Part shown: positions 22,386-49,976 of the stretch, one piece after another
Layout of the letters: the number at the start of each line of letters is the position of its first letter
Numbering within the stretch: the first letter of the stretch is position 1
Notes under the pieces: generated by a model
The model's input: the letters and a program-made list of their open reading frames with translations, nothing else
Told to the model about the DNA's origin: nothing
Database searches by the model: none
Program-made: the position numbers and the translations under genes
Origin: a virus
Lineage: Duplodnaviria; Caudoviricetes
DNA: 53,795 nucleotides
IMG/VR virus record: IMGVR_UViG_3300026926_000001
Location: 1-53,795 of that record
Reading direction: 5' to 3' (one strand)

Positions 22386-22859
22386 ATGGCACTGAACCCA
22401 GACCGAACTATCAATGGCTCTTACGGCGAGCTATTCCTGGACGGCATTTGGCAGACCCAGGTACAGCGCGTTGAGGGCCGCATCACAATCAACCGTCGTG
22501 AAGTGCGTCTGGCTGGCGCACGTCAAACGGGCTACAAGGCGACTGGTACTGCTGGTGATGGGACTATCACTGGCTTCAAGGTCACCAGCTACTTCCTGCG
22601 CACCATTGGTGCATATCAGCGCCACAGCCGTAGCCGACAGGTACCGGCTCTCATCCGCTACGAGTTGGACGATCCCGAGGCGTTTGGTGCTGAGGTCGTT
22701 GAGCTGGTAGGCGTGAAATTCTGGGAGGTGCCAATCGGCTTCCAGGTAGACGAATTGGTTGAGGAAGCCATTCCGTTTACCTTCATCAACCACAACATGC
22801 TTTCGTGCATCGACGGAAACCTGCAAGAGTGGGAATCCGAAGGCACGGACTGCACGTAA
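22386..22859 (+). CDS. Tail tube protein (XkdM-like)
   Basis: INGSYGELFLDG, LDDPEAFGAE, EEAIPFTF. Confidence 0.9.
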   Translation: MALNPDRTINGSYGELFLDGIWQTQVQRVEGRITINRREVRLAGARQTGYKATGTAGDGTITGFKVTSYFLRTIGAYQRHSRSRQVPALIRYELDDPEAFGAEVVELVGVKFWEVPIGFQVDELVEEAIPFTFINHNMLSCIDGNLQEWESEGTDCT

Positions 22860-22875
22860 GGAGCAATTGCGGGCA

Positions 22876-23424
22876 ATGACTACTCAGGAAAACGCAGTAC
22901 AGGCAGCAGACGTTCGTACTCCTATGCGTAGGATTGCGGCTAGGCCGGATGTAGACGTGGTACTCACACCCGAGGAAGCTGCTGAGCAATATCATGGTGA
23001 GCCAGTAGATGCTTTGGAGGAACTACTGGCTTACGATTCCAACAAGAAGTTTACAGATGAGCTGGACATGAGCCAGTATGGATTCAAGGCATCCTGGCAA
23101 ATCCAGAACCTGACTGGCCCAGAACATAGCCAGCTCATCGAACGTGCCAGCCGCATAGTAAAAAACACTGGCTCTGGTACCCTCCAGAAGCAAATGGACG
23201 GCCAGAAGTTCCAGGCGTTGGTGGTGGCATATGGTGTAAAGACACCTAACCACAGAGACTCCAAGATTATGAAGAAATACAACATGCGCAACACCCAGGA
23301 AGACCGTCTGGTTCTGGAGATCTACAAGAACCAACCTGGGCTGATGTTGTATGTGTCCAACGCCGTGCTGGAGCTTAGTGGTTTCCACGAGGATTTGGTC
23401 GAGGTCGCCAAAAGCTCTGATTGA
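22876..23424 (+). CDS. Tail assembly chaperone (XkdN-like)
   Basis: SD AAGGAG; PG...VLELSGF...VEVAK ending. Confidence 0.8.
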   Translation: MTTQENAVQAADVRTPMRRIAARPDVDVVLTPEEAAEQYHGEPVDALEELLAYDSNKKFTDELDMSQYGFKASWQIQNLTGPEHSQLIERASRIVKNTGSGTLQKQMDGQKFQALVVAYGVKTPNHRDSKIMKKYNMRNTQEDRLVLEIYKNQPGLMLYVSNAVLELSGFHEDLVEVAKSSD

Positions 23425-23644
23425 GGCGCATCCAGAGACCAATCTGCTGGCTAGGATCTTCCTTGAAACAGGTAGATTCCCACACGAAGTTTATGAGCTA
23501 CCCCGTGGGGAGCGTGCGTTAGTGTACGCTTCTGTTATCACGGGGGCAAAGTTCAATAAGCAGACGGGTGGAAGTCCAGCTAAGAACATCAAGTCGATGC
23601 TGGCAAAAGTGAGGATGGCGAAGGGATTACCTGGTGGCGATTAG
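23410..23644 (+). CDS. Frameshift extension of tail assembly chaperone
   Basis: +1 frame ORF KALIEAHPE...PHEVYELPRGERALVYAS, no good start of its own, abuts tape measure. Confidence 0.65.
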
Positions 23645-26600
23645 ACGGGTCGTTGCTGCTATCGACGTTGTCATCAATGGACAACGTAATCTCGATCGCC
23701 TTGCTCAGGGTTACCTGGCGTTAGAGCGGACGGTTATACGTGCCCAGACCGCTCTAACCAGGACTACCACGTCGACCACGGCTATGGGCCGTGCTTTCAA
23801 TACCATGACCTCTGGCATTCGTGGTGCTACCAGTGCCTTTGGCTCGATGGTAACCACTGTTGAAAGAGGCCGTACAGCCTTAGACCAACAGGGTAGAACC
23901 ACACGCGGTTTGACAGACAACATTCTGTCGCTAACCAAGTCTATGCTCTTATTTTCTGTCTTGCTGCCTGCTGTGCAGATGCCACAGAGAATAATTGAGT
24001 CTTTTGGTGACTTTATCAAAGTTGGCGCAGAGTGGCAGACCCAGATGCGTGCTGCCAATGCGCTGCTGGACCTGAACGAAAAGGCATTCAAGGACTATAA
24101 CGTCCAAGTTCAGCAAATGGCTATCGCTCAAGGGGTTGCCACGGACCAGATGGAAATGTTCGTGACAGCTGCATCTAGTGTTGCAGGTATCAAACAGAAT
24201 ACCCAAGCGATGCAGGCTATGGGTAAAGAAGCCTACAACGCCAGCGTAGCGCTAGAGCTTGCCACGGAATCTGCCAGGCTTGCTCGCGCTACCAATACAC
24301 AGGCAGCAGAGTCCCAGAGCACGTTGATTGAAGTGATGTCTGCCTACAGGTTTGGGCTGGAAGAGACAACTAAAGTTGCAGACTCTCTGTTTGCCATTAC
24401 TGACGTAGGCAACGTGCGCTTTAGGGAATTAGAGAGTACAATTCCGCGTATTACCGCTGCGATGGGACCGTTCATCCAGAATGCCCAGACTGCTGCTGAC
24501 AAGCAGCGCGTGATGAATGAGTCTTTCGCTGCCTTTGCGGCAATGACTCAGGTAATGCCAGCGGATATGGCAGCTACGTCGTTTGCCAATATCTTTAAAG
24601 ATATCTCCCAGATGACAGGCCAGCAGAGATCATTGGTGCAAACCTGGGAGAAGATCAGGGTACAGCAAGGTTTGGGTAGAGACATGAGTCTGGACCCAAC
24701 TGCCTTGATTGAAAATGGCCCGATGGCTGGCCTTATTCAGTTGCGCAAAGTGTTGGACCTGCAAAGTCCGTTGGTTACTGCGTATGTGCAGAATCAGAAA
24801 AGACTAGGCAACACCGCTGACGAAGGCTCACTGCGTATGACGGGCCAGATGCAGATTGCGCAGGCATACTTCGAAGATATGCGTGCTGTGCGTGGTTTTG
24901 TCAGCACCACGCCTGAGCTATTAGAAGCATCTGGGCAAGCATTTGGCGAGAGTAGACAAGGTGGTGTAGAGCGCGGCATCGGGCAGATGGAAAAGACGCT
25001 TACAGATGCCCAGAAAAGATTAGGTGCTGCCTGGACCGCAATACGTACAGCTATCTTTCAGCCGCTAGAAGCACCGATGATTGCGCACATGAATCCAATC
25101 ATCGAGATGTTCAGCAACATGCTAACCAATGTGGATTTCCAAAATGGTAGCGTGCTGAACAAAATTCGCATGGTAGCCAATGCCTTGATGGATTCCTTTA
25201 CTAACTACTTCAGGAGTGGCGGTAGAGGTGAGATTCAGTCAGTAGGCAGAGAAATTGGCACGTTTATCGGCGATTCCATCACTGCATTCTTCCGTGGTGG
25301 TAAAGATAACGTGCTGGTAGAAGCAGCTACGGCATTTGGTGAAGCGTTTGTCTCTGGTATCGGGCAAACGTTGCCAGATATGCTCAAGGCTATCATCACC
25401 AGCAGTCTTACAAGAGCGTTGGCTGAAGGTTTAGCTATCAGCTATGTCACCAAGGGCAGGATACCAGACGTAGCTAGACGAGCATTGGCAGTCGGTGTGC
25501 CAGCCTTGACGTTAGCTGCGTCTGATAATGGTGGCGGAGTAGGCACACCCAACGGTACAGGCATGGATCTTAGTTCTCTAGCCCTGCCTGCTGCTGCTAC
25601 ACTGGTAACTGGAGTCGCTGCAACGGCAGCATTCAGAAGATTTGGTGGCGCACCGATCTTTGGAGCGGGTCTTAACTCTAGATTTGGACCTAATAGTATC
25701 CGAAGTCTTGCTGATGTTGGTGCCTGGCTCTCGCTTGTGTCGCCCATGCGCATGGGTGCTGCTAGAGCTAGAGGCCCGATACCGACTCCACCAACAGGTA
25801 GTGTCTTGGGTAGTCTTGGTAAGGCGATTGGACCAGGTGCTCTCCTGACTGCTGCACAGGTTCTCCCAGAATTGTTGTCTGATGAGTCGGAACGGGAGAA
25901 ATGGGCAGCGATTGGTGGAGGTGTAGGTGGCGTAGGTGGTGGTCTGCTAGGTGTTGTAGGAGGCGGTGGAATTGGTAGTCTTGCGCTTGGCCTAGCAGGT
26001 TCGATTGGTGGCGGCATGTTTGGTAGATGGGCTGGTGGAGCTCTCTACGACCGCTTCCACCCTGCTACTGGTGCTGGCGGAATGCCTGCGGGTGGTGCAG
26101 ACACCATGGATGCCCCTGAGCGTGTTGCAGTTGCAGACATCTTTGCAACTGGCATGGACAACAGTAGTCTGCCAACACTGCTAACCCAGATTCGCGATAT
26201 TCTAATCCGTAGTGGTGGTGGTGCGGTAGGCGGTTTCTCCAGTCCTACTGCTACTACAGGCACTACAAAAACGTCTGCCAACGCTTCTTCAGGTAATCTA
26301 GCCAACAACTTCGTAAATCAGATGGATAGAACGCAGCTAACATATGACCAGACGCAAGCAGCGTGCGGTCCTGCTGCGGCAGCGTTCTTTGCCCAAGCTT
26401 ACGGACGTAACCCAACCCTGAAGGAAGCATACGCACTGATTACCCAGATCCAGGGTGCAGATCCTGCTGCTGCGGGTGTGGGTGGTACACGAGGCGTGGC
26501 TACCATTGGGCAGGCACTCAACAAGATGGGTGTTGGCAACGAAGTCTACACAGGTGCTAACGTAGACTGGGGTAGACTAGCCAATAACGCTCAAGCTGGT

Positions 26601-27041
26601 ATCCCAGGCATTGTGAACATTGGACCTAGCGGTAGATTCCCAGGCCACTTCTTCCAGATTGGTGGTTGGGACCCATCTACCAACAGATTCAATGTTGGCA
26701 CTTCGGGCACTGTGCTCAGCAAGTTTGGCGGCAAGGATTGGATGACGCCACAGGAAATGATGGCGTTGGGTCCAACTATGGGTGCCGTTTACGGTACAGG
26801 CACAGGTGCAGGACCTGGAGTGACAGCAGCAGACGTAGCTTCCATCCAGGGTGCGGGCACAGGCACAGGACCTGGAGAAGGTGGCGGCGGAATTACAATC
26901 AATGTACAAAACCTGATGAATGTAGAGCGTATGGACGGTAACACAGATATCAGGGCGTTGATGGGTCAGATGGCAGATATGCTACGGCAACTGTCCACTG
27001 GTGGTTCTGTTGTTGGGCAGAATGGAACGGTGGCCCCATGA
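23634..27041 (+). CDS. Tape measure protein with C-terminal C39-like peptidase domain
   Basis: 1135 aa Ala/Gly helical; TP901-type core; AACGPAAA...GHFF near C-terminus. Confidence 0.9.
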   Translation: MAIRRVVAAIDVVINGQRNLDRLAQGYLALERTVIRAQTALTRTTTSTTAMGRAFNTMTSGIRGATSAFGSMVTTVERGRTALDQQGRTTRGLTDNILSLTKSMLLFSVLLPAVQMPQRIIESFGDFIKVGAEWQTQMRAANALLDLNEKAFKDYNVQVQQMAIAQGVATDQMEMFVTAASSVAGIKQNTQAMQAMGKEAYNASVALELATESARLARATNTQAAESQSTLIEVMSAYRFGLEETTKVADSLFAITDVGNVRFRELESTIPRITAAMGPFIQNAQTAADKQRVMNESFAAFAAMTQVMPADMAATSFANIFKDISQMTGQQRSLVQTWEKIRVQQGLGRDMSLDPTALIENGPMAGLIQLRKVLDLQSPLVTAYVQNQKRLGNTADEGSLRMTGQMQIAQAYFEDMRAVRGFVSTTPELLEASGQAFGESRQGGVERGIGQMEKTLTDAQKRLGAAWTAIRTAIFQPLEAPMIAHMNPIIEMFSNMLTNVDFQNGSVLNKIRMVANALMDSFTNYFRSGGRGEIQSVGREIGTFIGDSITAFFRGGKDNVLVEAATAFGEAFVSGIGQTLPDMLKAIITSSLTRALAEGLAISYVTKGRIPDVARRALAVGVPALTLAASDNGGGVGTPNGTGMDLSSLALPAAATLVTGVAATAAFRRFGGAPIFGAGLNSRFGPNSIRSLADVGAWLSLVSPMRMGAARARGPIPTPPTGSVLGSLGKAIGPGALLTAAQVLPELLSDESEREKWAAIGGGVGGVGGGLLGVVGGGGIGSLALGLAGSIGGGMFGRWAGGALYDRFHPATGAGGMPAGGADTMDAPERVAVADIFATGMDNSSLPTLLTQIRDILIRSGGGAVGGFSSPTATTGTTKTSANASSGNLANNFVNQMDRTQLTYDQTQAACGPAAAAFFAQAYGRNPTLKEAYALITQIQGADPAAAGVGGTRGVATIGQALNKMGVGNEVYTGANVDWGRLANNAQAGIPGIVNIGPSGRFPGHFFQIGGWDPSTNRFNVGTSGTVLSKFGGKDWMTPQEMMALGPTMGAVYGTGTGAGPGVTAADVASIQGAGTGTGPGEGGGGITINVQNLMNVERMDGNTDIRALMGQMADMLRQLSTGGSVVGQNGTVAP

Positions 27042-30825: not shown

Positions 30826-32570
30826 CAACACTTGACGGACCGCAGAGATTACTAGACACCCTCCGTTATATTGCGGATACGGAGGATAAACTCAATGCGC
30901 TATCTGGTACTGGTGTTGTCTTCCGCACAGGCGTAGTACTCAGCAGCTTGCCCCAACTGACGCTATCCATGGATGGTGAATCTTCCATGGGTGGCCCAAT
31001 GATCTTCGACGCATCCCAGGGCGATTTGCTGGTACCTGAGGATCTGTTCCTAACTACTGGCGACACGGTAGTCCTTGCACCATTGTCCAAGCGCAAGTGG
31101 GTAGTGTTGTTCAAGACCAGAACCAGTGCGGATCAGGTTTACCGTGCTCGTTATGGTATAAACAATGATCGCAATGGTGGTGAGTTCGCTGGTCTTGAGA
31201 TTACAGAGGATCCCAACACTGGTCATGTCACAGTAACCCTGGTAGGCACCAACACCAATGTCAATGGTGATACTGTACTGTCTAACGGTGGTGGCTTTGG
31301 AGGAGGTGAAGTAGGTCCTCCAGGACCAATTGGCCCAGAGGGTCCTCCAGGTCCGCCAGGTCCTGCTGGTCCACAAAGTACAGTCCCTGGTCCGACTGGC
31401 CCTCCTGGACCTAATGGTCCGCCAGGTTTGACTGGCCCCACGGGTCCTCAAGGTCCTGCAGGCCCACAGGGTCTAACAGGTGCCACAGGTTCTATCGGTA
31501 ACACAGGACCTCAGGGTCCACAAGGTGCTGTAGGCCCGACTGGCCCTCAAGGAAACGTTGGTCCTCAAGGTGCAAAGGGAGATAAAGGCGACACAGGCGC
31601 ACAAGGCACTCAGGGAATTCAAGGCCCACAGGGTGTTACTGGCCCTACTGGTTCCCAGGGACCTAAGGGTGATACGGGCCTGACAGGTCCACAGGGGTCG
31701 CAGGGCACTACTGGCGCTACTGGACCACAAGGACCAGCAGCTACAGTCAATGCTGGAACAACAGCGACGAGTGCGCCAGGGACCAATGCAAACGTCGTAA
31801 ATGCAGGCTCTACCAGCGCAGCAGTCTTTAACTTCACCATCCCACGCGGTGATGTTGGCGCGCAAGGAGCGACAGGTGCTCAGGGCTTACAGGGTCCAGT
31901 AGGGCCACAAGGACCAACTGGCTCGACTGGTTCTCAGGGTATACCTGGACCAACTGGTCCACAGGGAACGCAAGGCCCAACTGGCCCAACTGGACCGATT
32001 GGACCTCCTGGTGGTACTACGATGCGTGAGGAGTCCAAGCCTGTAAATGGTACCACGGTAGTCAATACAAGCCAGGTACCTGATTCACTGATATATGTGA
32101 GTCGCAATGGTATTGTTCAATCTAGTCAGGATGGACATTTCACACAAGCAGGTGGTGTCTTCACATTCTCCACACCTTTGGATGGTACCGAGCGTGTGGA
32201 GATCAGCTATGTGGTTGGTTCTATCGGTGGTGTTGGGCCTCCTGGTCCTCCTGGTCCAAACGCTGCTGTGCATGAGGAATTCTTGCCAGCTAACGCAGCG
32301 ACTACAGTAGCGTTGGGACAAACTCCTACTGTCTTGTTGACAGTGTCGCGTGGTGGTATCATACAGTCACAAACCGACGGCAACTACTCTCTAAGTGGTC
32401 GTACAATTACTTTCACAGACGCATTTGATGGAACGGAACGGGTTGTGGTATGCTATGTAAGCAACACCTATGTTCCACCATCCTTCGTCGTCACACCAGC
32501 AATAGACACAGTGCTTCGTGCTTACATCTCGAGACTGATGACACCAATTGATCCGGGAGGACCACCGTGA
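30822..32570 (+). CDS. XkdR-position baseplate/spike protein with collagen-like repeats
   Basis: OB-like N-terminus (L..GDTVVL); long Gly-X-Y tracts; duplicated ~65-aa C-terminal domain. Confidence 0.75.
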
Positions 32571-33499
32571 CAACTCTCGACTTGATACCATCGCAAGATG
32601 TATCAGTCGTCCCGTTGGATGTATCTACTACTAACAAGGTAGTTATCTGGCCTGGAGCTGGAGGTGCATTCAAGAATACGGGCAATGCGCTCATAGACGG
32701 GCCACTGTACATTGGTTCCACCAACCAGGCACTAAAGAACGCTGTCAATGCTGCCCAGATGCTCAGCCTTGAGAGTCAGGTTAGCCATCTGTTCTTGAGT
32801 TCTGGCCCTGGAGCTAATGTACATCTAGCTGCCAATGCTTATTACGATGGTGTCAACTGGCAGCGCTACGATGTGAACAGCACGTCTGCTGTATTTTCTG
32901 CCAATGCTGGCGGTGGATTCTCGTTTTACTCGCAAGCTGCGGGTGCTAATCCACTATCATTGGCGTCTGTAGCCCAGATGAGCGCAGCAGGCAATTTGAC
33001 GCTCAATGGCGGCAACTTGTATCTACGCAACGACAACGGGGTGTTCTTGACGTGGAACGGTACATACATTCGCAGTAATGTTGGCCTATACACAGATGGA
33101 ATACTCCAATCGGTTGGCCGTCTGATTACCAACAACTGGGACGGTGGTTGGTCGAACAACCTGGGTGGCACGACATATGCACAGAGTCATCTTCTGACAG
33201 CTGGACGCTTTGCCACAAACGGATGGTGGGACACAGGTTACGCCAACTCACTCGGCGGCAACGTGCTCGTGAATGGTTTTGTCTACCAGCGAGCTTCAGG
33301 TAGTTACCGTTGCTGGGACAATGGTGACTTTACCTATGATACTGCGGCCAGTGGTAGCACTCTGGTGCAGCGCGATGGCAGTGGTTATATCAGAGGTACT
33401 TACATCAATATGTCGGCGGACATACAAGGCGGTGCCCCCGTATATGTGGCAGGGCAGAATGGAGACAACTATCTACGTTGGTACCCAAAAGCCTCGTAG
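32567..33499 (+). CDS. Tail fibre-like protein
   Basis: Gly/Asn/Ser-rich; TLVQRDGSG fibre motif. Confidence 0.7.
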
Positions 33500-41136: not shown

Positions 41137-41991
41137 ATGCAAACAACTGCACGACACGGGTTCTTACTACCAGAAATCACTGATGATGACCCCACACCTA
41201 ATGCTGGTGTGCGGGATACCACCAGATATAACTCTTCGTTGAGTGATCGGAGCACGTTCTACGATTACAACGAAGTCATCACTGGTAGCTGGAGCTTCTC
41301 TACCATCACACTTACTGGCGGCTTGAGCCAGGACATGGTGAACAACACTGGCGCAGCCCGTGTGCCTGGTGACGTGGTGATGCTCGATCCCAATGTGGAC
41401 CGTAGTATCATCATGCCCGTTGTGGGCACTGTTGGTCCGATGATTGGTGTGGTGGTAGCCAACATCGCAGCTGGAGCCATTGGGCGCGTCGCGATGGAAG
41501 GTTTTGTTCAGACCAAAGTCACAGGTGCCAGCCGTCTACAATATCTCGTAGCCCAGGACAACAATGTGGTTGCCGCTGGTAGTAGCCTAGCCAGCAGCGC
41601 AGCATTCGGGATTGCTCTGGAGAATCCCTCTGGCGGCTTGTGTTTGGCCTACTTGCACCCTAGTGCGGGTAGTGATGCAGAAAGCAGCTACAAGACCACG
41701 ACACTACGCTCCAATGCTGCCAATATCACAGCGGCAATGCTTTCGGGGAAACTGTTCGTCTTCTGTTATCTGGCAGGTGCTCAGACGGTTGTACTTCCAG
41801 ACCCAACTACTAATGAGCGCCCCATTACAATCTGTGCTGAGAATGGCACCGTCACGGTTACTGCCACTGGTGGCAGTCAGGTTTTGGGAGGCTCTACTAA
41901 CCAGACCACTGGTGCAATCATCAATGGCACGATAAATGCTCCTGATTCTTTCCAGTACAAGAGCAATGGCATCCAGTGGAGGGCGGTATGA
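41137..41991 (+). CDS. Tail fibre/baseplate-attached protein
   Basis: SD GAGGT; T.RHGFLLP N-terminus; TVVLP...SNG..W C-terminus. Confidence 0.65.
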   Translation: MQTTARHGFLLPEITDDDPTPNAGVRDTTRYNSSLSDRSTFYDYNEVITGSWSFSTITLTGGLSQDMVNNTGAARVPGDVVMLDPNVDRSIIMPVVGTVGPMIGVVVANIAAGAIGRVAMEGFVQTKVTGASRLQYLVAQDNNVVAAGSSLASSAAFGIALENPSGGLCLAYLHPSAGSDAESSYKTTTLRSNAANITAAMLSGKLFVFCYLAGAQTVVLPDPTTNERPITICAENGTVTVTATGGSQVLGGSTNQTTGAIINGTINAPDSFQYKSNGIQWRAV

Positions 41992-43064
41992 CCTACGCTG
42001 CATCAGCCGTTAGCTATTGGGTGGGCCAGGCTAACGACTCTAGTACAGGCACACATCCTCCTGGTTGGGCATCTGGACAGCGCTGGTCTGCCACAGCTAA
42101 CTCCTGGATGAACGTCTACAATACAGAGTATGCTAATGCACGGGACAACTCTGCAGGACAGCCAGGTAAACCTGGAGGTATCCAGCATCCTACAGGGTGG
42201 GTAGCTGGACAACTATGGTCTGCAACTGCTACCCAATGGAACACCATGTGGGGTACAGAGTGGACCAATGCCAGGGATAACTCTGGTGGGCAGACGTCTA
42301 GTGGTCTGGGCGCAGCGCATCCGACAAACTGGGTCGCAGGGCAGATGTGGTCTGCTACCGCTGACCAGTGGAATGCTATGTGGGGTAACGAATGGCGCAA
42401 CAGCCATGATCCACAAGGCTATTCCTACAGTTATCCTGGTCAGGGTGCCAATGCCGTCTACTGGTCGCAGTCTGCTAGTTACTGGCGCGGACAAGCAGAC
42501 TACTATTGGGGACCAAGCCGCGTCTGGAACAATGGTGCTACCTGGGAGCAGAACTACAACGCATACGTCGGTTATTACAACGATATGGTCAACCAGCGTG
42601 ATACCTGGAGTTCCAGGGCAAATCAGGCATGGGGACCAAGTAGAGTCTGGAGCAATGGTGAGTCTTGGGAAGCAGCCTACAACCGTGTGCTGCCCCCTGG
42701 TGGTATTGTCCAGATAAACGGTACCAACACTGCTACGTCGTTCCCAGACGGCGTGAACATGACACGTCTCAGTTATATCACTGCTGACCGTGCTGGCTAT
42801 TGGGCGTTTTCATACTCTCTCAAAGTTTCAAGCACTTCTGACCGTCTGAATCTTGAAGCCAGGTATGCAGGCACGGCACGATTCTCTGACATATGGAGTC
42901 CTGGTAACGCAGGTTCTTTTGCCGCAGGACTAGGTGGGATCTATACCCTTGGTGCTGGACAGTTGCTAGAGATCTGGGGTGTCCACGGGTACAACGGCGG
43001 ATACAATATTTCAGCACAGACTCTGCAATGCTGGTTCGTGCCAATGACTAGCTACCCACACTAG
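41988..43064 (+). CDS. Trp-rich repeat protein with C-terminal RBP-like domain
   Basis: SD GGAGG, ATGA overlap; three HP..W..GQ.WSATA..W repeats. Confidence 0.75.
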   Translation: MTYAASAVSYWVGQANDSSTGTHPPGWASGQRWSATANSWMNVYNTEYANARDNSAGQPGKPGGIQHPTGWVAGQLWSATATQWNTMWGTEWTNARDNSGGQTSSGLGAAHPTNWVAGQMWSATADQWNAMWGNEWRNSHDPQGYSYSYPGQGANAVYWSQSASYWRGQADYYWGPSRVWNNGATWEQNYNAYVGYYNDMVNQRDTWSSRANQAWGPSRVWSNGESWEAAYNRVLPPGGIVQINGTNTATSFPDGVNMTRLSYITADRAGYWAFSYSLKVSSTSDRLNLEARYAGTARFSDIWSPGNAGSFAAGLGGIYTLGAGQLLEIWGVHGYNGGYNISAQTLQCWFVPMTSYPH

Positions 43065-43072
43065 GAGGTACA

Positions 43073-43363
43073 GTGGAAGAAATTCAAATCAAGCTATCTG
43101 TACAGGTTGCCATGCGCCTAGCGCAATTGGAAGCCAGAGTAGAGGTAGCTAACAAGATCATGAGTGAAGTCATGGATGCTTATAAGAAAGTATGTGATGC
43201 TGAGCAGCAGCGCATGGATGTTCTTATGACTAGCATTTGTGACACCAACGGACAGACGCTGCCAGCGAACTACGAATACTCGTTTGATCCAGGCCAGATG
43301 ATGATAACGTTTCGTGGCAACAATCCATCCAAACTAGCAATTGAGGTGAACGGACATGAGTGA
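43073..43363 (+). CDS. Hypothetical helical protein (paralogue of 37909-38256)
   Basis: SD AGGAGGT. Confidence 0.7.
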   Translation: MEEIQIKLSVQVAMRLAQLEARVEVANKIMSEVMDAYKKVCDAEQQRMDVLMTSICDTNGQTLPANYEYSFDPGQMMITFRGNNPSKLAIEVNGHE

Positions 43364-43562
43364 AACATCGCCCGAAATCACACAGCTACAGCAGCAACAG
43401 TCTCTCTTCACGGCTGCACTGGCAGCTATGTTGGAAGGACGCTTTACTGGTGCCGATTCAGTAGAAGCGTTTTTGTATGCACTTGATCCTGGGCTCCAAG
43501 GTACCCTGACTCTTGACCCACCAGTATCTGAATCCGAACTGGAAGAACCCCCAAAAGGATAA
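43356..43562 (+). CDS. Small protein; probable N-terminal part of frameshifted lysin
   Basis: SD GAGGTG; ends CCC CCA AAA GGA TAA. Confidence 0.7.
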   Translation: MSETSPEITQLQQQQSLFTAALAAMLEGRFTGADSVEAFLYALDPGLQGTLTLDPPVSESELEEPPKG

Positions 43563-44011
43563 CCTGGGATCCAAACACCCTGATGCCAACACAGCGCGTC
43601 AATTGGACGTGCTCCGCCTGTGCGCTGGCTTGGGTGTTACGTGCTACCGGATTGGATCCCGGGGCCACAGAGGATGGCTGCGTCGAAGCAATTGGTTACC
43701 CACAGAACATCAATGCCACGTATGGTCTGATGGACGGTAGCGGCGCAGAACTCCAGAGGGTGTTGGCAGATTATGAACAGGACAGCGCTCAGGACTGGCT
43801 AACGTTTGAAGCAGTCTGGGCGGGTGCTGGACATACAACGGGTATGATGGCAGGAGGTAACTGGTACCATTGGGTAGCAATCCGAGGACAATCGGGGGAC
43901 AATCTGTGGATTGCTAATTCTGCGCCCGGATACAGAGGAGTTTGGGATACTGTAACCCGTGAACAGTTCCAAGCACTCGGGCCATTCAGTGTCGTATGGT
44001 TGGAGCCATGA
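43550..44011 (+). CDS. C39-like cysteine peptidase, putative endolysin (via -1 frameshift or ATG 43583)
   Basis: Q...WTCS, HWVAI, ANSA catalytic pattern; next to holin-like genes. Confidence 0.7.
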   Translation, partial: PKRITWDPNTLMPTQRVNWTCSACALAWVLRATGLDPGATEDGCVEAIGYPQNINATYGLMDGSGAELQRVLADYEQDSAQDWLTFEAVWAGAGHTTGMMAGGNWYHWVAIRGQSGDNLWIANSAPGYRGVWDTVTREQFQALGPFSVVWLEP

Positions 44012-44178
44012 GTACTGTTGTACGTCCTACGTACTATACACCCATCCGTTGGGTTGTAGTAATCATAGCAGTCTTGCTTTTCCTGCTCGCAGCATTCCAT
44101 GCCAATCCGTTTGGTAGCTCGGTTGATATCATTCCTCTCGGGTTGGCGTTCGGATTCGGGGCGTTACTGATTCCCTAA
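44008..44178 (+). CDS. Holin-like two-TM protein
   Basis: SD GGAG, two hydrophobic segments, follows peptidase. Confidence 0.55.
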   Translation: MSTVVRPTYYTPIRWVVVIIAVLLFLLAAFHANPFGSSVDIIPLGLAFGFGALLIP

Positions 44179-44183
44179 ATGCC

Positions 44184-45539
44184 GTGAACCTTTACGCGCA
44201 AGTTGCAATCTATACGGCAATCGGAGGCTGTGCGGGAGCACTCGTGCTTTCTCAGTTGAGCGGCAGTGGAGTACTCGGCCAGGAACTAAAATTGGCTGTG
44301 CCACAAGTTGTAGAAACATCTGTCTCGGTAGTAGAGACGCAGATTCCTACACAACAGTCAGCGACAATCGTACCGTTAGGTGTGCCGACCCAGGTGACTG
44401 CTACTGCAACATCTCCTCCGCCAGTAGTTATAGTGCTGGTACAGCCCACAGCTACATCTACTGAGACGCCTATACCTTCTCCTCAGGTAACCCCGACTGA
44501 TATATCTGCAGAAGAGCCAGAAGCAGTTGGGGTTTCTTTGGTGCAGACGCGCCTTTTGCCGACTGTGCGCTCTTCGCCTGTACAGTTGCCGAGCACAGCT
44601 ACACCCGTCATGATAGAGGTACCTACAGAACCCGAAGTGGTTGAGATCGTCACACCGACCCTAACTCCCACTCCTACTGTAGTGCCTACGATAGTGCCTA
44701 CTGTAATAGCAGCCGCCAACGATGGACAAACTCTGGCGGGGCAGTCGCGACAGACACAAGAAGATTTCCTAGCGGTGTACGGCGAGGATGCTCGAATTGC
44801 TTGGGCTGCCGAACATAATAGAGACACATCGTCGGCATCGGTTACGGGTGGCAGTGGAGTATTGCCAAGTCCCTCCCCTCCATTGTCGCCCGTGCCGACC
44901 CCTACACAGACTTCTACTTCCACATCGGTTACGGGTGGTGGTGAAGGTTTGCCTCCAATCTCCCCAACCACACCATCACCCGTGCCGACCCGTAGACCTC
45001 CTTCTCCTGGTGGTGGACAACCAACAAATACACCGACGGCCACAATTACGGTGACACCTACTGTAGCAACACCGCAACCCACGGCTAATCCGACGGCTAC
45101 TACGACGGTCACAGCTACTGTGACCCCAACACCTACGGTAACGCCAGTGCCTACACCGACAAGCGCAGCGACACCGTTCCCGATAACTGTCACGCCAACG
45201 GGTACTGCGACTCCTACCAATACTCCTCAGCCAGTGAGCACGGCAACCCCGACTATCACACCTGCACCCACGTTGACGAGTACGCCAACTCTTAGTCCTA
45301 CACCTACATCTACCGTATCGGTTCAACCCACAGCAACGCTACGACCAACACGCACACCAAGGCCAACCAATACACCACGTCCGACTCCGACACCAGGATG
45401 CCCTCCAGGTCAGATTCCAATACCAAATAGCCCTTCAGGTTGTATGTCTAAACCCGATGCGACAAGAACAGCAGTTGCATTGACACAGACAGCTATGCCA
45501 ACAAATACGCCTCGCCCAACAAGGACACCCAGACCGTAA
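44184..45539 (+). CDS. Membrane-anchored Pro/Thr-rich protein
   Basis: N-terminal hydrophobic segment; long PT/TPT tracts. Confidence 0.75.
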   Translation: MNLYAQVAIYTAIGGCAGALVLSQLSGSGVLGQELKLAVPQVVETSVSVVETQIPTQQSATIVPLGVPTQVTATATSPPPVVIVLVQPTATSTETPIPSPQVTPTDISAEEPEAVGVSLVQTRLLPTVRSSPVQLPSTATPVMIEVPTEPEVVEIVTPTLTPTPTVVPTIVPTVIAAANDGQTLAGQSRQTQEDFLAVYGEDARIAWAAEHNRDTSSASVTGGSGVLPSPSPPLSPVPTPTQTSTSTSVTGGGEGLPPISPTTPSPVPTRRPPSPGGGQPTNTPTATITVTPTVATPQPTANPTATTTVTATVTPTPTVTPVPTPTSAATPFPITVTPTGTATPTNTPQPVSTATPTITPAPTLTSTPTLSPTPTSTVSVQPTATLRPTRTPRPTNTPRPTPTPGCPPGQIPIPNSPSGCMSKPDATRTAVALTQTAMPTNTPRPTRTPRP

Positions 45540-48964: not shown

Positions 48965-49067
48965 TCTGTAAACCTGAACGTAAATCTACTTTTTTGGATG
49001 CAACTGGGAACGTCCTGGCTGCTAAAATGTAGCGTGCCAAAAAAGACGGGTCTTGGGCAGCCAATCT

Positions 49068-49976
49068 ATGACTAGAAACCAACGCCTCGTGCTGGTGTGG
49101 TTTCAAGAACATTGCAGTGTGCGTGGCATAGTCAGGGTAAGCAGCCCTGAGATCGGTTTGATATTCGGTTGGTCGCACCAGTATACCCAAAAGATCCTTA
49201 ATGCTCTTTTAGAGTCTGAGGATCTTGTGTTGCTTCAACGGGGTAGCGGCCAAAGAGCAGCAAAGTATCTGGTTCCGTCAATTAGCTGCAACCAACAAGA
49301 GCTAGCTGCAACCAATTCTGTTTCCACTAGCCAACCCCCCAGGAGTGTCGCCCGCCACGTTCCTAGTTGCAACCAAAAGACGTCAAAAGAGCCACAAAAT
49401 ACACTCTTCCAAAAAAGTGTTGGCCCTTTAGGTAATGCACTAGGTAAGGATAAGGATAGGGAATATGCGTACCAGAGCGAACATATACGTAATGGTACCG
49501 TATTCGATAACGTACCGAGTAACCTGAAGCGCGTTAAGAAGAAGAGTTCTCCATTCAAACGCTTTCGTATACATTGCGAAAATGTGAGACAATGGTCTGG
49601 CCCTGACTTCGTCTGCTATTTCTCCTTTTGTCACCGGGTAAAGTACGGAGAAATGCCTACCATAAACTGGAAGATGGAATGTGGGGCAGCTAACACCTTA
49701 CTGAAGAGATTGGGTGGAGAACGCTGGAAACTCAAGGTATTCCTTCAGCAATCATTCTTGTTTCTCAAGCGTAAGCCCAACGGATTACGTACACTTACCA
49801 ATGATTACGTCTTCCGTGACATTATTGCTCAGAGATATACCGAAGACGAGCTGGATGAATATGCCGATGACTATGTCTTTCCATGGCTCTACGAGAAAAT
49901 GAAGCGAGAAAGTTTAGCAGCTTCAAGAGAGGCCAACGCACGATCAATCCGACGGTCTCTGGGCATCTACGACTAA
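49068..49976 (+). CDS. Putative replication initiator (N-terminal wHTH)
   Basis: wHTH-like N-terminus, internal DNA repeats, upstream of DnaB/DnaG. Confidence 0.6.
   Translation: MTRNQRLVLVWFQEHCSVRGIVRVSSPEIGLIFGWSHQYTQKILNALLESEDLVLLQRGSGQRAAKYLVPSISCNQQELAATNSVSTSQPPRSVARHVPSCNQKTSKEPQNTLFQKSVGPLGNALGKDKDREYAYQSEHIRNGTVFDNVPSNLKRVKKKSSPFKRFRIHCENVRQWSGPDFVCYFSFCHRVKYGEMPTINWKMECGAANTLLKRLGGERWKLKVFLQQSFLFLKRKPNGLRTLTNDYVFRDIIAQRYTEDELDEYADDYVFPWLYEKMKRESLAASREANARSIRRSLGIYD
49283..49376 (+). repeat. Iteron-like repeats TAGYTGCAACCAA x3 (candidate origin)
   Basis: Copies at 49283, 49303, 49364. Confidence 0.7.

Follow-up and report, generated by a model that had tools for sequence, protein, structure and literature searches.

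Programmed ribosomal frameshifting in tailed phages is a textbook property of the tail chaperone genes and has also been found in certain capsid and tail proteins. The −1 programmed ribosomal frameshift in the tail assembly chaperones G and GT of lambda-like phages is said to have been described by Xu, Hendrix and Duda in 2004 (as referenced in PMC5506516). Here we analyze a candidate site of this kind that would act within a lysis gene. It lies in a stretch of 53,795 nucleotides (nt), hereafter called the window, which is a 53.8-kb virus record of IMG/VR (IMGVR_UViG_3300026926_000001; Duplodnaviria, Caudoviricetes) with an estimated completeness of 59%. A short open reading frame (ORF) of 68 amino acids (aa), ORF1, ends at a candidate −1 slippery heptamer, C_CCA_AAA, and is followed in the −1 frame by ORF2, a 142-aa peptidase ORF. 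A first-pass annotation had proposed that the pair forms a putative endolysin made by −1 frameshifting. Comparative genomics gives strong support to recoding that yields two products, and programmed −1 frameshifting is, very probably, the best explanation of the ORF1-peptidase arrangement, as judged from comparison of related sequences.

A full-text literature search found no programmed frameshift within an endolysin gene or a lysis enzyme. Lysins with two products from one gene are represented by LysIME-EF1, Lys170, CTP1L and CD27L, which PMC7098653 and PMC4777826 describe as two-component endolysins with an internal start; the LysIME-EF1 assembly is given in the former (PMC7098653) as one full-length protein to three copies of the cell wall-binding domain. 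Frameshifts have also been mentioned in connection with lysins. The PRFect paper (PMC10885494) cites Shearman 1994 in naming lysins as genes "known to contain a frameshift," and PMC3111421 presents the Shearman locus as a lysin plus a small holin-like protein. A genome announcement for Streptomyces cluster BI phages refers to predicted frameshifts in genes "near" endolysins and holins.

Anatomy of the ORF1-peptidase junction

ORF1 (43356..43562, plus strand) begins 7 nt downstream of a Shine-Dalgarno (SD) sequence, GAGGTG (43343..43348, plus strand; read from the sequence), and encodes a small, predicted helical N-domain of 68 aa that ends P-P-K-G-stop. It is the orthologue of stand-alone "S" genes found in relatives of the fused type. 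The 3′ end of ORF1 reads GAA GAA CCC CCA AAA GGA TAA, such that the CCA and AAA of the candidate heptamer (43550..43556, plus strand) are 0-frame codons in the X_XXY_YYZ phase and the 0-frame stop, TAA (43560..43562, plus strand), stands one codon past it. The −1 frame is closed by a TGA at 43529-43531 and is then open from 43532 to a TGA at 44009-44011; hence, any frame change is confined to the 29 nt of 43532-43560. From 43550 this frame reads P-K-R-I-T-W-D-P-N-T-L-M-P-T-Q, with 151 codons open past the shift. The predicted product of 218 aa would consist of 67 aa read in the 0 frame and 151 aa read in the −1 frame (43556..44011, plus strand), the latter comprising a linker, R-I-T-W-D-P-N-T-L, and the peptidase domain. 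The internal ATG of the peptidase ORF, at 43583, has no GGAG, GAGG or AGGA in the 15 nt from −18 to −4. These features agree with the initial description of the locus, in which a 68-aa ORF with a strong SD ended at the heptamer, the −1 frame ran open into the peptidase and the ATG of the latter lacked a good SD.

In alignment A3, ORF1 shares 49 to 76% identity with 30 homologues. No match to ORF1 was obtained in Pfam or PHROGs and no usable match in the ESM Atlas. Against PDB sequences, the A3 profile retrieved only designed repeat proteins (Cake, Bagel and Scone) through a 12-residue stretch; no stretch was significant alone, and the hits were rejected as a repeat artefact. A complex prediction for two copies of ORF1 with the same alignment scored 0.02 (mark, 0.42), which is evidence neither way.

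Conservation of the heptamer in split relatives

A word-indexed search with the 142-aa ORF returned 537 proteins. Among the best 120 matches, taken as clusters, 70 were 137 to 147 aa in length, 47 were 207 to 226 aa and 3 were of other lengths. The long homologues have an ORF1-like N-terminus and a linker with the motif Y/W-[DNQ]-P-x-x-x-M-P-x-Q; the −1 frame of the window gives the same motif upstream of and across the internal ATG, and the predicted frameshift product of 218 aa is within the length range of these fused proteins. The 70 short clusters are probably truncated models of the recoded gene.

The DNA of 94 related loci was collected, of which 10 were viral, 80 were metagenomic (the best of the 250 that were confirmed) and 4 came from GTDB genomes. 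N-domains were located in all three frames with two hidden Markov models built from the loci themselves. With the window included and 6 duplicates removed, the 95 loci gave 89 distinct ones. Those with an ORF1-like N-domain were termed class A and comprised 16 split loci requiring a −1 shift and 22 loci fused in one frame (∼217 aa). Those with an unrelated N-domain of 60 to 65 aa were termed class B and comprised 42 split loci requiring a +1 shift, 4 split loci requiring a −1 shift and a single fused locus. For the remaining 4 loci the N-domain was not found; the contig end fell inside three of these, and the fourth was a distant relative.

All 16 class A split loci, the window included, have CCCAAAA in phase, at a distance from the 0-frame stop of 3 nt in 14 loci, 0 nt in one and 6 nt in one. 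The codon before CCA ends in C in 16/16 (CTC in 11, CCC in two, and ACC, GCC and TTC once each). This wobble C is constant across five amino acids (L, P, T, A and F), indicating selection on the nucleotide string and not on the protein. Past the heptamer, protein-level constraint in the −1 frame acts on the eight codons that lead up to the Met (P in 16/16, W in 15/16), and the linker W-[DN]-P of the split loci aligns with Y/W-[DNQ]-P of the fused proteins. Variability in the linker peaks at codon position 3 of the −1 frame (0.51 versus 0.38 and 0.31), and the ratio of synonymous to nonsynonymous single changes, 169:142 when the −1 frame is read, falls to 132:202 for the 0 frame and 58:273 for the +1 frame. 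A core SD was present before the N-domain start in 15/15 split class A loci, the choice of start codon having favored SD-bearing candidates, and before the internal ATG in 0/15. The first-pass annotation had asked whether homologues were fused or kept a slippery site and had named a lack of conservation as fatal to the proposal; conservation of the site is strong, with the heptamer in every split relative of class A and the others of this class fused.

In a weakly resolved tree of the peptidase, split loci were interleaved with fused ones in several lineages, with five changes between the two states, at least two of which are forced by well-supported branches. Two fused-type loci were in metagenome-assembled genomes (MAGs) of Chloroflexota and one +1 locus was in a MAG of Gemmatimonadales. 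A tblastn search with the peptidase against 50,697 cultured-phage records gave no match.

Fused relatives carry a separate N-domain gene

A separate gene of 60 to 70 aa, encoding a closer homologue of ORF1, lies just upstream of the fused gene in 20/22 fused class A loci. The other two are cut short by a contig edge, and in one the 3′ part of such an upstream gene is still visible. In 15/20 loci the TGA of the stand-alone gene overlaps the GTG or ATG of the fused gene by 4 nt, as GTGA or ATGA (L003, L004, L005, L015, L016, L022 and L029, among others), at ∼220 to 250 nt upstream of the peptidase domain. An overlap of 4 nt between stop and start is the classical arrangement for translational coupling. 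Phages with this layout hence encode, in a coupled gene pair, both of the proteins that the window would obtain through frameshifting.

A model of the fused homologue P0024, based on a 47-sequence alignment (pLDDT, 91; pTM, 0.70), has a long helix at residues 3 to 25, a short helix at 36 to 43, a low-confidence, Pro-rich linker at 51 to 70 and then the peptidase. The model suggests that the N-domain may be a separate module on a flexible tether. Pfam searches with two of the stand-alone S proteins and four class B N-domains gave no match.

A sister clade with candidate +1 sites

The N-domain of class B is unrelated in sequence to ORF1 and follows the pattern G-P-G-V ... R-S-D-E ... E-E-D-N, ending in R-x-P-F. 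The gene is split in 46/47 loci of this class (including L006, L008 to L010, L024, L027 and ∼35 more), with the junction ∼40 to 65 nt upstream of the start of the peptidase domain. The 42 sites that need a +1 shift consist of TTT TGA in 26 loci (mostly CCC TTT TGA), CCC TTT CGN TGA in 12 and other forms in 4. T or C follows TTT in 42/42, permitting tRNA-Phe to re-pair one base forward. The four sites that need a −1 shift are C_CCT_TTT or C_CCT_TTC. An ATG is missing from the start of the domain in at least 10 of 43 class B loci, and an SD before the internal ATG was found in 0/33. Starting from the +1 arrangement, deletion of one base gives a fusion and insertion of one base gives the −1 arrangement. 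The occurrence of four −1 loci and one fusion fits selection to keep two products, on small numbers of sequences.

The classification of the 89 loci leads us to the view that both products, the short one and the long N-domain-peptidase one, appear to be required. Dozens of related phages appear from their sequences to retain this or an equivalent frameshift arrangement, which would make it wider than one site.

Other copies of the heptamer in the window

When all ORF ends of the window were scanned, C_CCA_AAA was found in phase on the plus strand at 43550 and 33484 only. The second site (33484..33490, plus strand) stands close to the end of a tail/fibre ORF, 32567-33499, two codons ahead of its stop, where the −1 frame is open for 124 codons, to 33864; the earlier remark that the lysis locus shares heptamer and phase with a fibre site was thus correct. 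No homologue of the −1 extension of the tail/fibre ORF was found in three related virus records. The string CCCAAAAG occurs five times in the window compared with 1.27 times expected, a count that 0 of 100 shuffles reached, and is in phase at an ORF end in 2 of the 5. The remaining copies of CCCAAAAG are at 1965 (9 nt past a stop), 49186 (out of phase with ORF 49053-49976) and 38320 (minus strand). The two candidate sites explain the excess of CCCAAAAG only in part.

The peptidase domain and its lysis context

ORF2 encodes a papain-like (C39-fold) cysteine peptidase domain of 142 aa (43583..44011, plus strand). In alignment A1 (12 sequences) the residues Q4 (43592-43594), C10 (43610-43612), H96 (43868-43870) and N112 (43916-43918) are invariant, and they would be the catalytic residues. 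A Gln six residues before a Cys at the N-terminus of a helix is, we presume, the papain-like spacing of oxyanion residue and nucleophile, and this spacing would explain the conserved P-x-Q with which the domain opens. When the 142-aa sequence was modeled by AlphaFold2 with the 12-sequence alignment, the model had a pLDDT of 88 and a pTM of 0.86, with a helix beginning at residue 10. The best Foldseek match was the pseudomurein endoisopeptidase PeiR (8z4h; E = 1.7e-5; TMq, 0.70), followed by C39 double-glycine peptidase domains of PCAT1, ComA and a LahT-like enzyme (TMq, 0.69 to 0.73); the papain-like toxin CdiA-CT was also matched. At E ≤ 0.1, neither ORF2 nor the extended product read in the −1 frame matched a Pfam family, and PHROGs gave no match for ORF2. 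The term "C39-like" used in the first-pass annotation therefore stands at the level of the fold and not at that of Pfam families.

An exhaustive profile-free search collected 348 representative proteins at E ≤ 1e-3, many of them multidomain. Ten distant multidomain relatives were scanned, revealing a GH25 lysozyme domain in one, YQBQ-like domains in two, a subthreshold GH19 domain in one, a subthreshold C39_2 domain in one (18.7 bits against Peptidase_C39_2, for which the cut-off is 24) and nothing in five.

Directly downstream of the peptidase gene is an ORF for a small, holin-like membrane protein (43996..44178, plus strand), whose likely start, ATG 44008, overlaps the peptidase stop as ATGA (44008-44011). 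Of the 65 loci with enough sequence, 55 have a small transmembrane ORF next after the peptidase gene on its own strand, compared with 9 on the opposite strand. The peptidase is most likely the phage endolysin, acting with the holin-like gene, as judged from its fold, its position and this downstream gene, and the designation "putative endolysin" is a reasonable one.

Genomic neighborhood

The gene order of the window is myovirus-like, with large terminase, portal, head protease, major head protein, tail sheath, a 1,135-aa ORF of tape-measure size and a baseplate wedge gene; ORF1 and the peptidase ORF are placed directly after the baseplate and fibre genes. The protein encoded directly before the lysis genes (362 aa; 41976-43064) has several Trp-rich repeats (W...G-Q-x-W-S-A-T-A-x-x-W-N-x-M-W-G-x-E-W), had no match in Pfam or PHROGs and may be a receptor-binding or fibre protein. 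After the holin-like gene comes a 451-aa protein (44184..45539, plus strand) whose N-terminus is hydrophobic and which has a very long, low-complexity region rich in Pro and Thr. It likewise had no Pfam or PHROG match and, from its sequence and place, may be a further protein of the lysis module. No phage-encoded tRNA, sought as a modulator of frameshifting, was found in the window.

Two ORFs, 22759-23424 and 23351-23644, lie just before the 1,135-aa ORF (23634-27041), in the place expected for tail assembly chaperones, the second being in the +1 frame relative to the first. Their overlap (23351-23424) contains GCC AAA AGC, in which CCAAAAG occurs again and the run of four A residues is phased for a forward slip. 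The lysin module is common to near-complete virus genomes of 39 to 91 kb that are otherwise different, namely those of L002 (G001; 90.6 kb, with terminal repeats), L003 (G002) and L010 (G003), which suggests that the module moves between phages.

Discussion

In the reading that we favor, ORF1 and the peptidase ORF would together be a single recoded gene of a myovirus-like phage whose host would be an uncultured soil bacterium. Most ribosomes would end at the TAA at 43560, releasing the 68-aa helical protein, and some would slip back by one base on C_CCA_AAA, with tRNA-Pro moving from CCA to CCC and tRNA-Lys from AAA to AAA. The slipped ribosomes would produce the 218-aa protein, in which the same N-domain is joined through a flexible Pro-rich linker to the papain-like cysteine peptidase. 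Our favored guess, by comparison with G/GT and the two-component endolysins, is that the short and long products would form a complex through their shared N-domain in a ratio set by the efficiency of frameshifting. The short product might act to set the dose, as a partner or as an inhibitor. The data show the anatomy of the site, its conservation as a nucleotide string, the fused homologues, the constraint on the linker protein in the −1 frame and the fold; the slippage and its rate, the cutting of the cell wall and the joint action of the short and long products are what we infer.

Several observations count against frameshifting at this site. No stimulator was identified, as SD-like motifs precede the heptamer in only a part of the split loci and not in the window, and no structure is conserved. 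GGAG, GAGG or AGGA was present 4 to 16 nt upstream of the heptamer in 9/16 split loci compared with 586 of 3,200 random positions (18%), an excess for which Glu codons could account, and no SD-like motif was found in the same interval upstream of the window heptamer. RNAalifold gave −2.19 kcal/mol with 0 compensatory pairs for the 16 split loci, revealing no conserved downstream stem or pseudoknot. The initial statement that no strong downstream stem was visible thus applies to the family; the window site alone folds to −33.3 kcal/mol (z = −2.7), in a stem that starts ∼17 nt past the heptamer and is not conserved. The only constant neighbor of the heptamer among split loci is the 0-frame stop. 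In Escherichia coli, X_XXA_AAA shifts less readily than X_XXA_AAG. None of the sequencing runs listed for the region is recorded as RNA. The class counts are not population frequencies because the metagenomic loci were the best 80 of those confirmed. Finally, the Met of the peptidase domain is kept even in the fused proteins (at least 90% of 47), and 66 of the 70 short gene calls among the best 120 matches open with M-[PA]-x-Q; some independent or reinitiated translation of the 142-aa enzyme is, hence, possible.

Such translation would be the only source of the enzyme if the locus consisted of two ordinary genes, with the peptidase read from ATG 43583, for example by reinitiation 20 nt past the TAA at 43560, and with an incidental heptamer. 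The conserved Met would be expected of two genes, as would the lack of a stimulatory RNA structure, and it is established that a short distance between stop and ATG permits termination-reinitiation. We regard two ordinary genes as very unlikely, however, because no internal ATG has an SD in either class, the nine codons ahead of the ATG show protein-level conservation in the −1 frame and match the linker of the fused proteins in alignment, the heptamer and the wobble C before it are invariant in 16/16 loci, and a number of class B loci have no ATG at this position at all. Two further explanations would place the change of frame outside the ribosome. A broken gene or a sequencing or assembly artefact, in which a one-base indel in the C5 or A4 run had split a single 218-aa gene, is suggested by the adjoining homopolymers, since one extra base would restore the fused frame, and by the many fused relatives. 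It is scarcely credible, as the probable source run has an identical Logan contig and an independent 151-nt contig from a different study, spanning 43525-43675, has 5 substitutions and 0 gaps. What X2 and X4, two runs with a small share of the region, cover lies wholly downstream of the site and does not bear on it. Fifteen other loci from many samples have the same frames and the same heptamer despite differing flanks, and the fused relatives differ systematically in having an extra stand-alone N-domain gene. The split is not an assembly error, and the indel that the first-pass annotation had feared is not present. Slippage of RNA polymerase on the A4 or C5 run, by which a fraction of the mRNAs would encode the fusion, would yield the same two proteins, and slippage-prone runs are established for some bacterial and phage genes. 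This too is highly improbable, since longer runs of A or T are needed (about 7 or more) than the 4 A and 3 to 5 C residues present here, the conserved X_XXY_YYZ phase and the nearby stop matter to ribosomes and not to a polymerase, and the CCC TTT TGA or TTT C of the sister clade is a typical context for a +1 slip in the P site.

With programmed frameshifting retained, the enzyme could be something other than an endolysin, namely a virion-associated wall-piercing peptidase or a C39-type protease that processes leader peptides. This would accord with the position of the gene directly after the baseplate and fibre genes, with the double-glycine leader peptidases of PCAT transporters and the CdiA-CT toxin among the closest folds, and with the phage-tail-associated YQBQ-like domain in two of the 10 distant relatives. 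We consider it unlikely, given that the small transmembrane gene that follows in most loci often overlaps the peptidase stop, that the best fold match is a phage-type wall endoisopeptidase, that one distant relative is fused to a GH25 lysozyme and that Pfam and PHROG scans of the neighboring genes, covering part of the window, found no other lysin candidate.

A more far-reaching proposal, which we offer tentatively and rate at somewhat below an even chance, is that these phages have an obligate two-component lysin, in which the shared domain holds the fusion and free copies of the N-domain together, in a ratio hard-wired by frameshift efficiency. One need would then be met in three ways: by −1 shifting on C_CCA_AAA, by +1 shifting on CCC_UUU_UGA with an occasional switch to −1 shifting on C_CCU_UUY, and by a duplicated N-domain gene with a GTGA/ATGA overlap. 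If this were true, the family would be a natural series on the origin and exchange of recoding sites. As it stands, more than 60 natural −1 and +1 sites and a two-gene equivalent are present in the family, so that frameshift signals can be compared across soil phyla that have been little studied.

Among described systems, the G/GT chaperones are alike in having a heptamer near the end of the short ORF, from which come two proteins with a common N-terminus, the short one abundant and the long one rarer, and in conservation of this arrangement across unrelated sequences. The window locus differs in that a lysis enzyme is involved, the 0-frame stop is 0 to 2 codons from the site and relatives use a +1 shift or a duplicated gene. 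The class B sites (for example, those of L006 and L010) resemble the prfB-type +1 "shifty stop," since the P-site codon can re-pair one base forward (UUU U or UUU C) and UGA follows directly in 26/42, but in 16/42 the next codon is a sense codon (CGN, CTC, CCT or CCA). With regard to the enzyme, the PeiR/PeiW endoisopeptidases and the C39 domains (8z4h, 6mpz, 7n87 and 3k8u) share the papain-like fold (TMq, 0.62 to 0.73) and residues of the Gln/Cys/His/Asn type, whereas their identity to the window peptidase is 11 to 20% and the window domain is outside Pfam.

The Shearman 1994 lysin locus, as described in PMC3111421, also has two proteins, but the second is the small holin-like protein and not an N-terminally identical isoform. 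PlyC, made up of PlyCA and PlyCB (PMC3111421), has a gene for a small (∼70 aa), noncatalytic subunit beside the catalytic one, like the relatives of the fused type; it differs in having no sequence relation or demonstrated structural relation to the window proteins and no recoding. In the two-component endolysins, one lysin gene likewise gives the full-length enzyme plus extra copies of its noncatalytic domain. There, the two products have their C-terminal domain in common, and the shorter one is initiated in frame at an internal ribosome-binding site and start, whereas in the window the shared domain is N-terminal, the long form would be made by frameshifting and the internal ATG has no SD. 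If the frameshift is real, it would represent a new way to build or dose a lysin, with a short and a long product that share their N-terminus in place of the C-terminal pairs made by internal starts.

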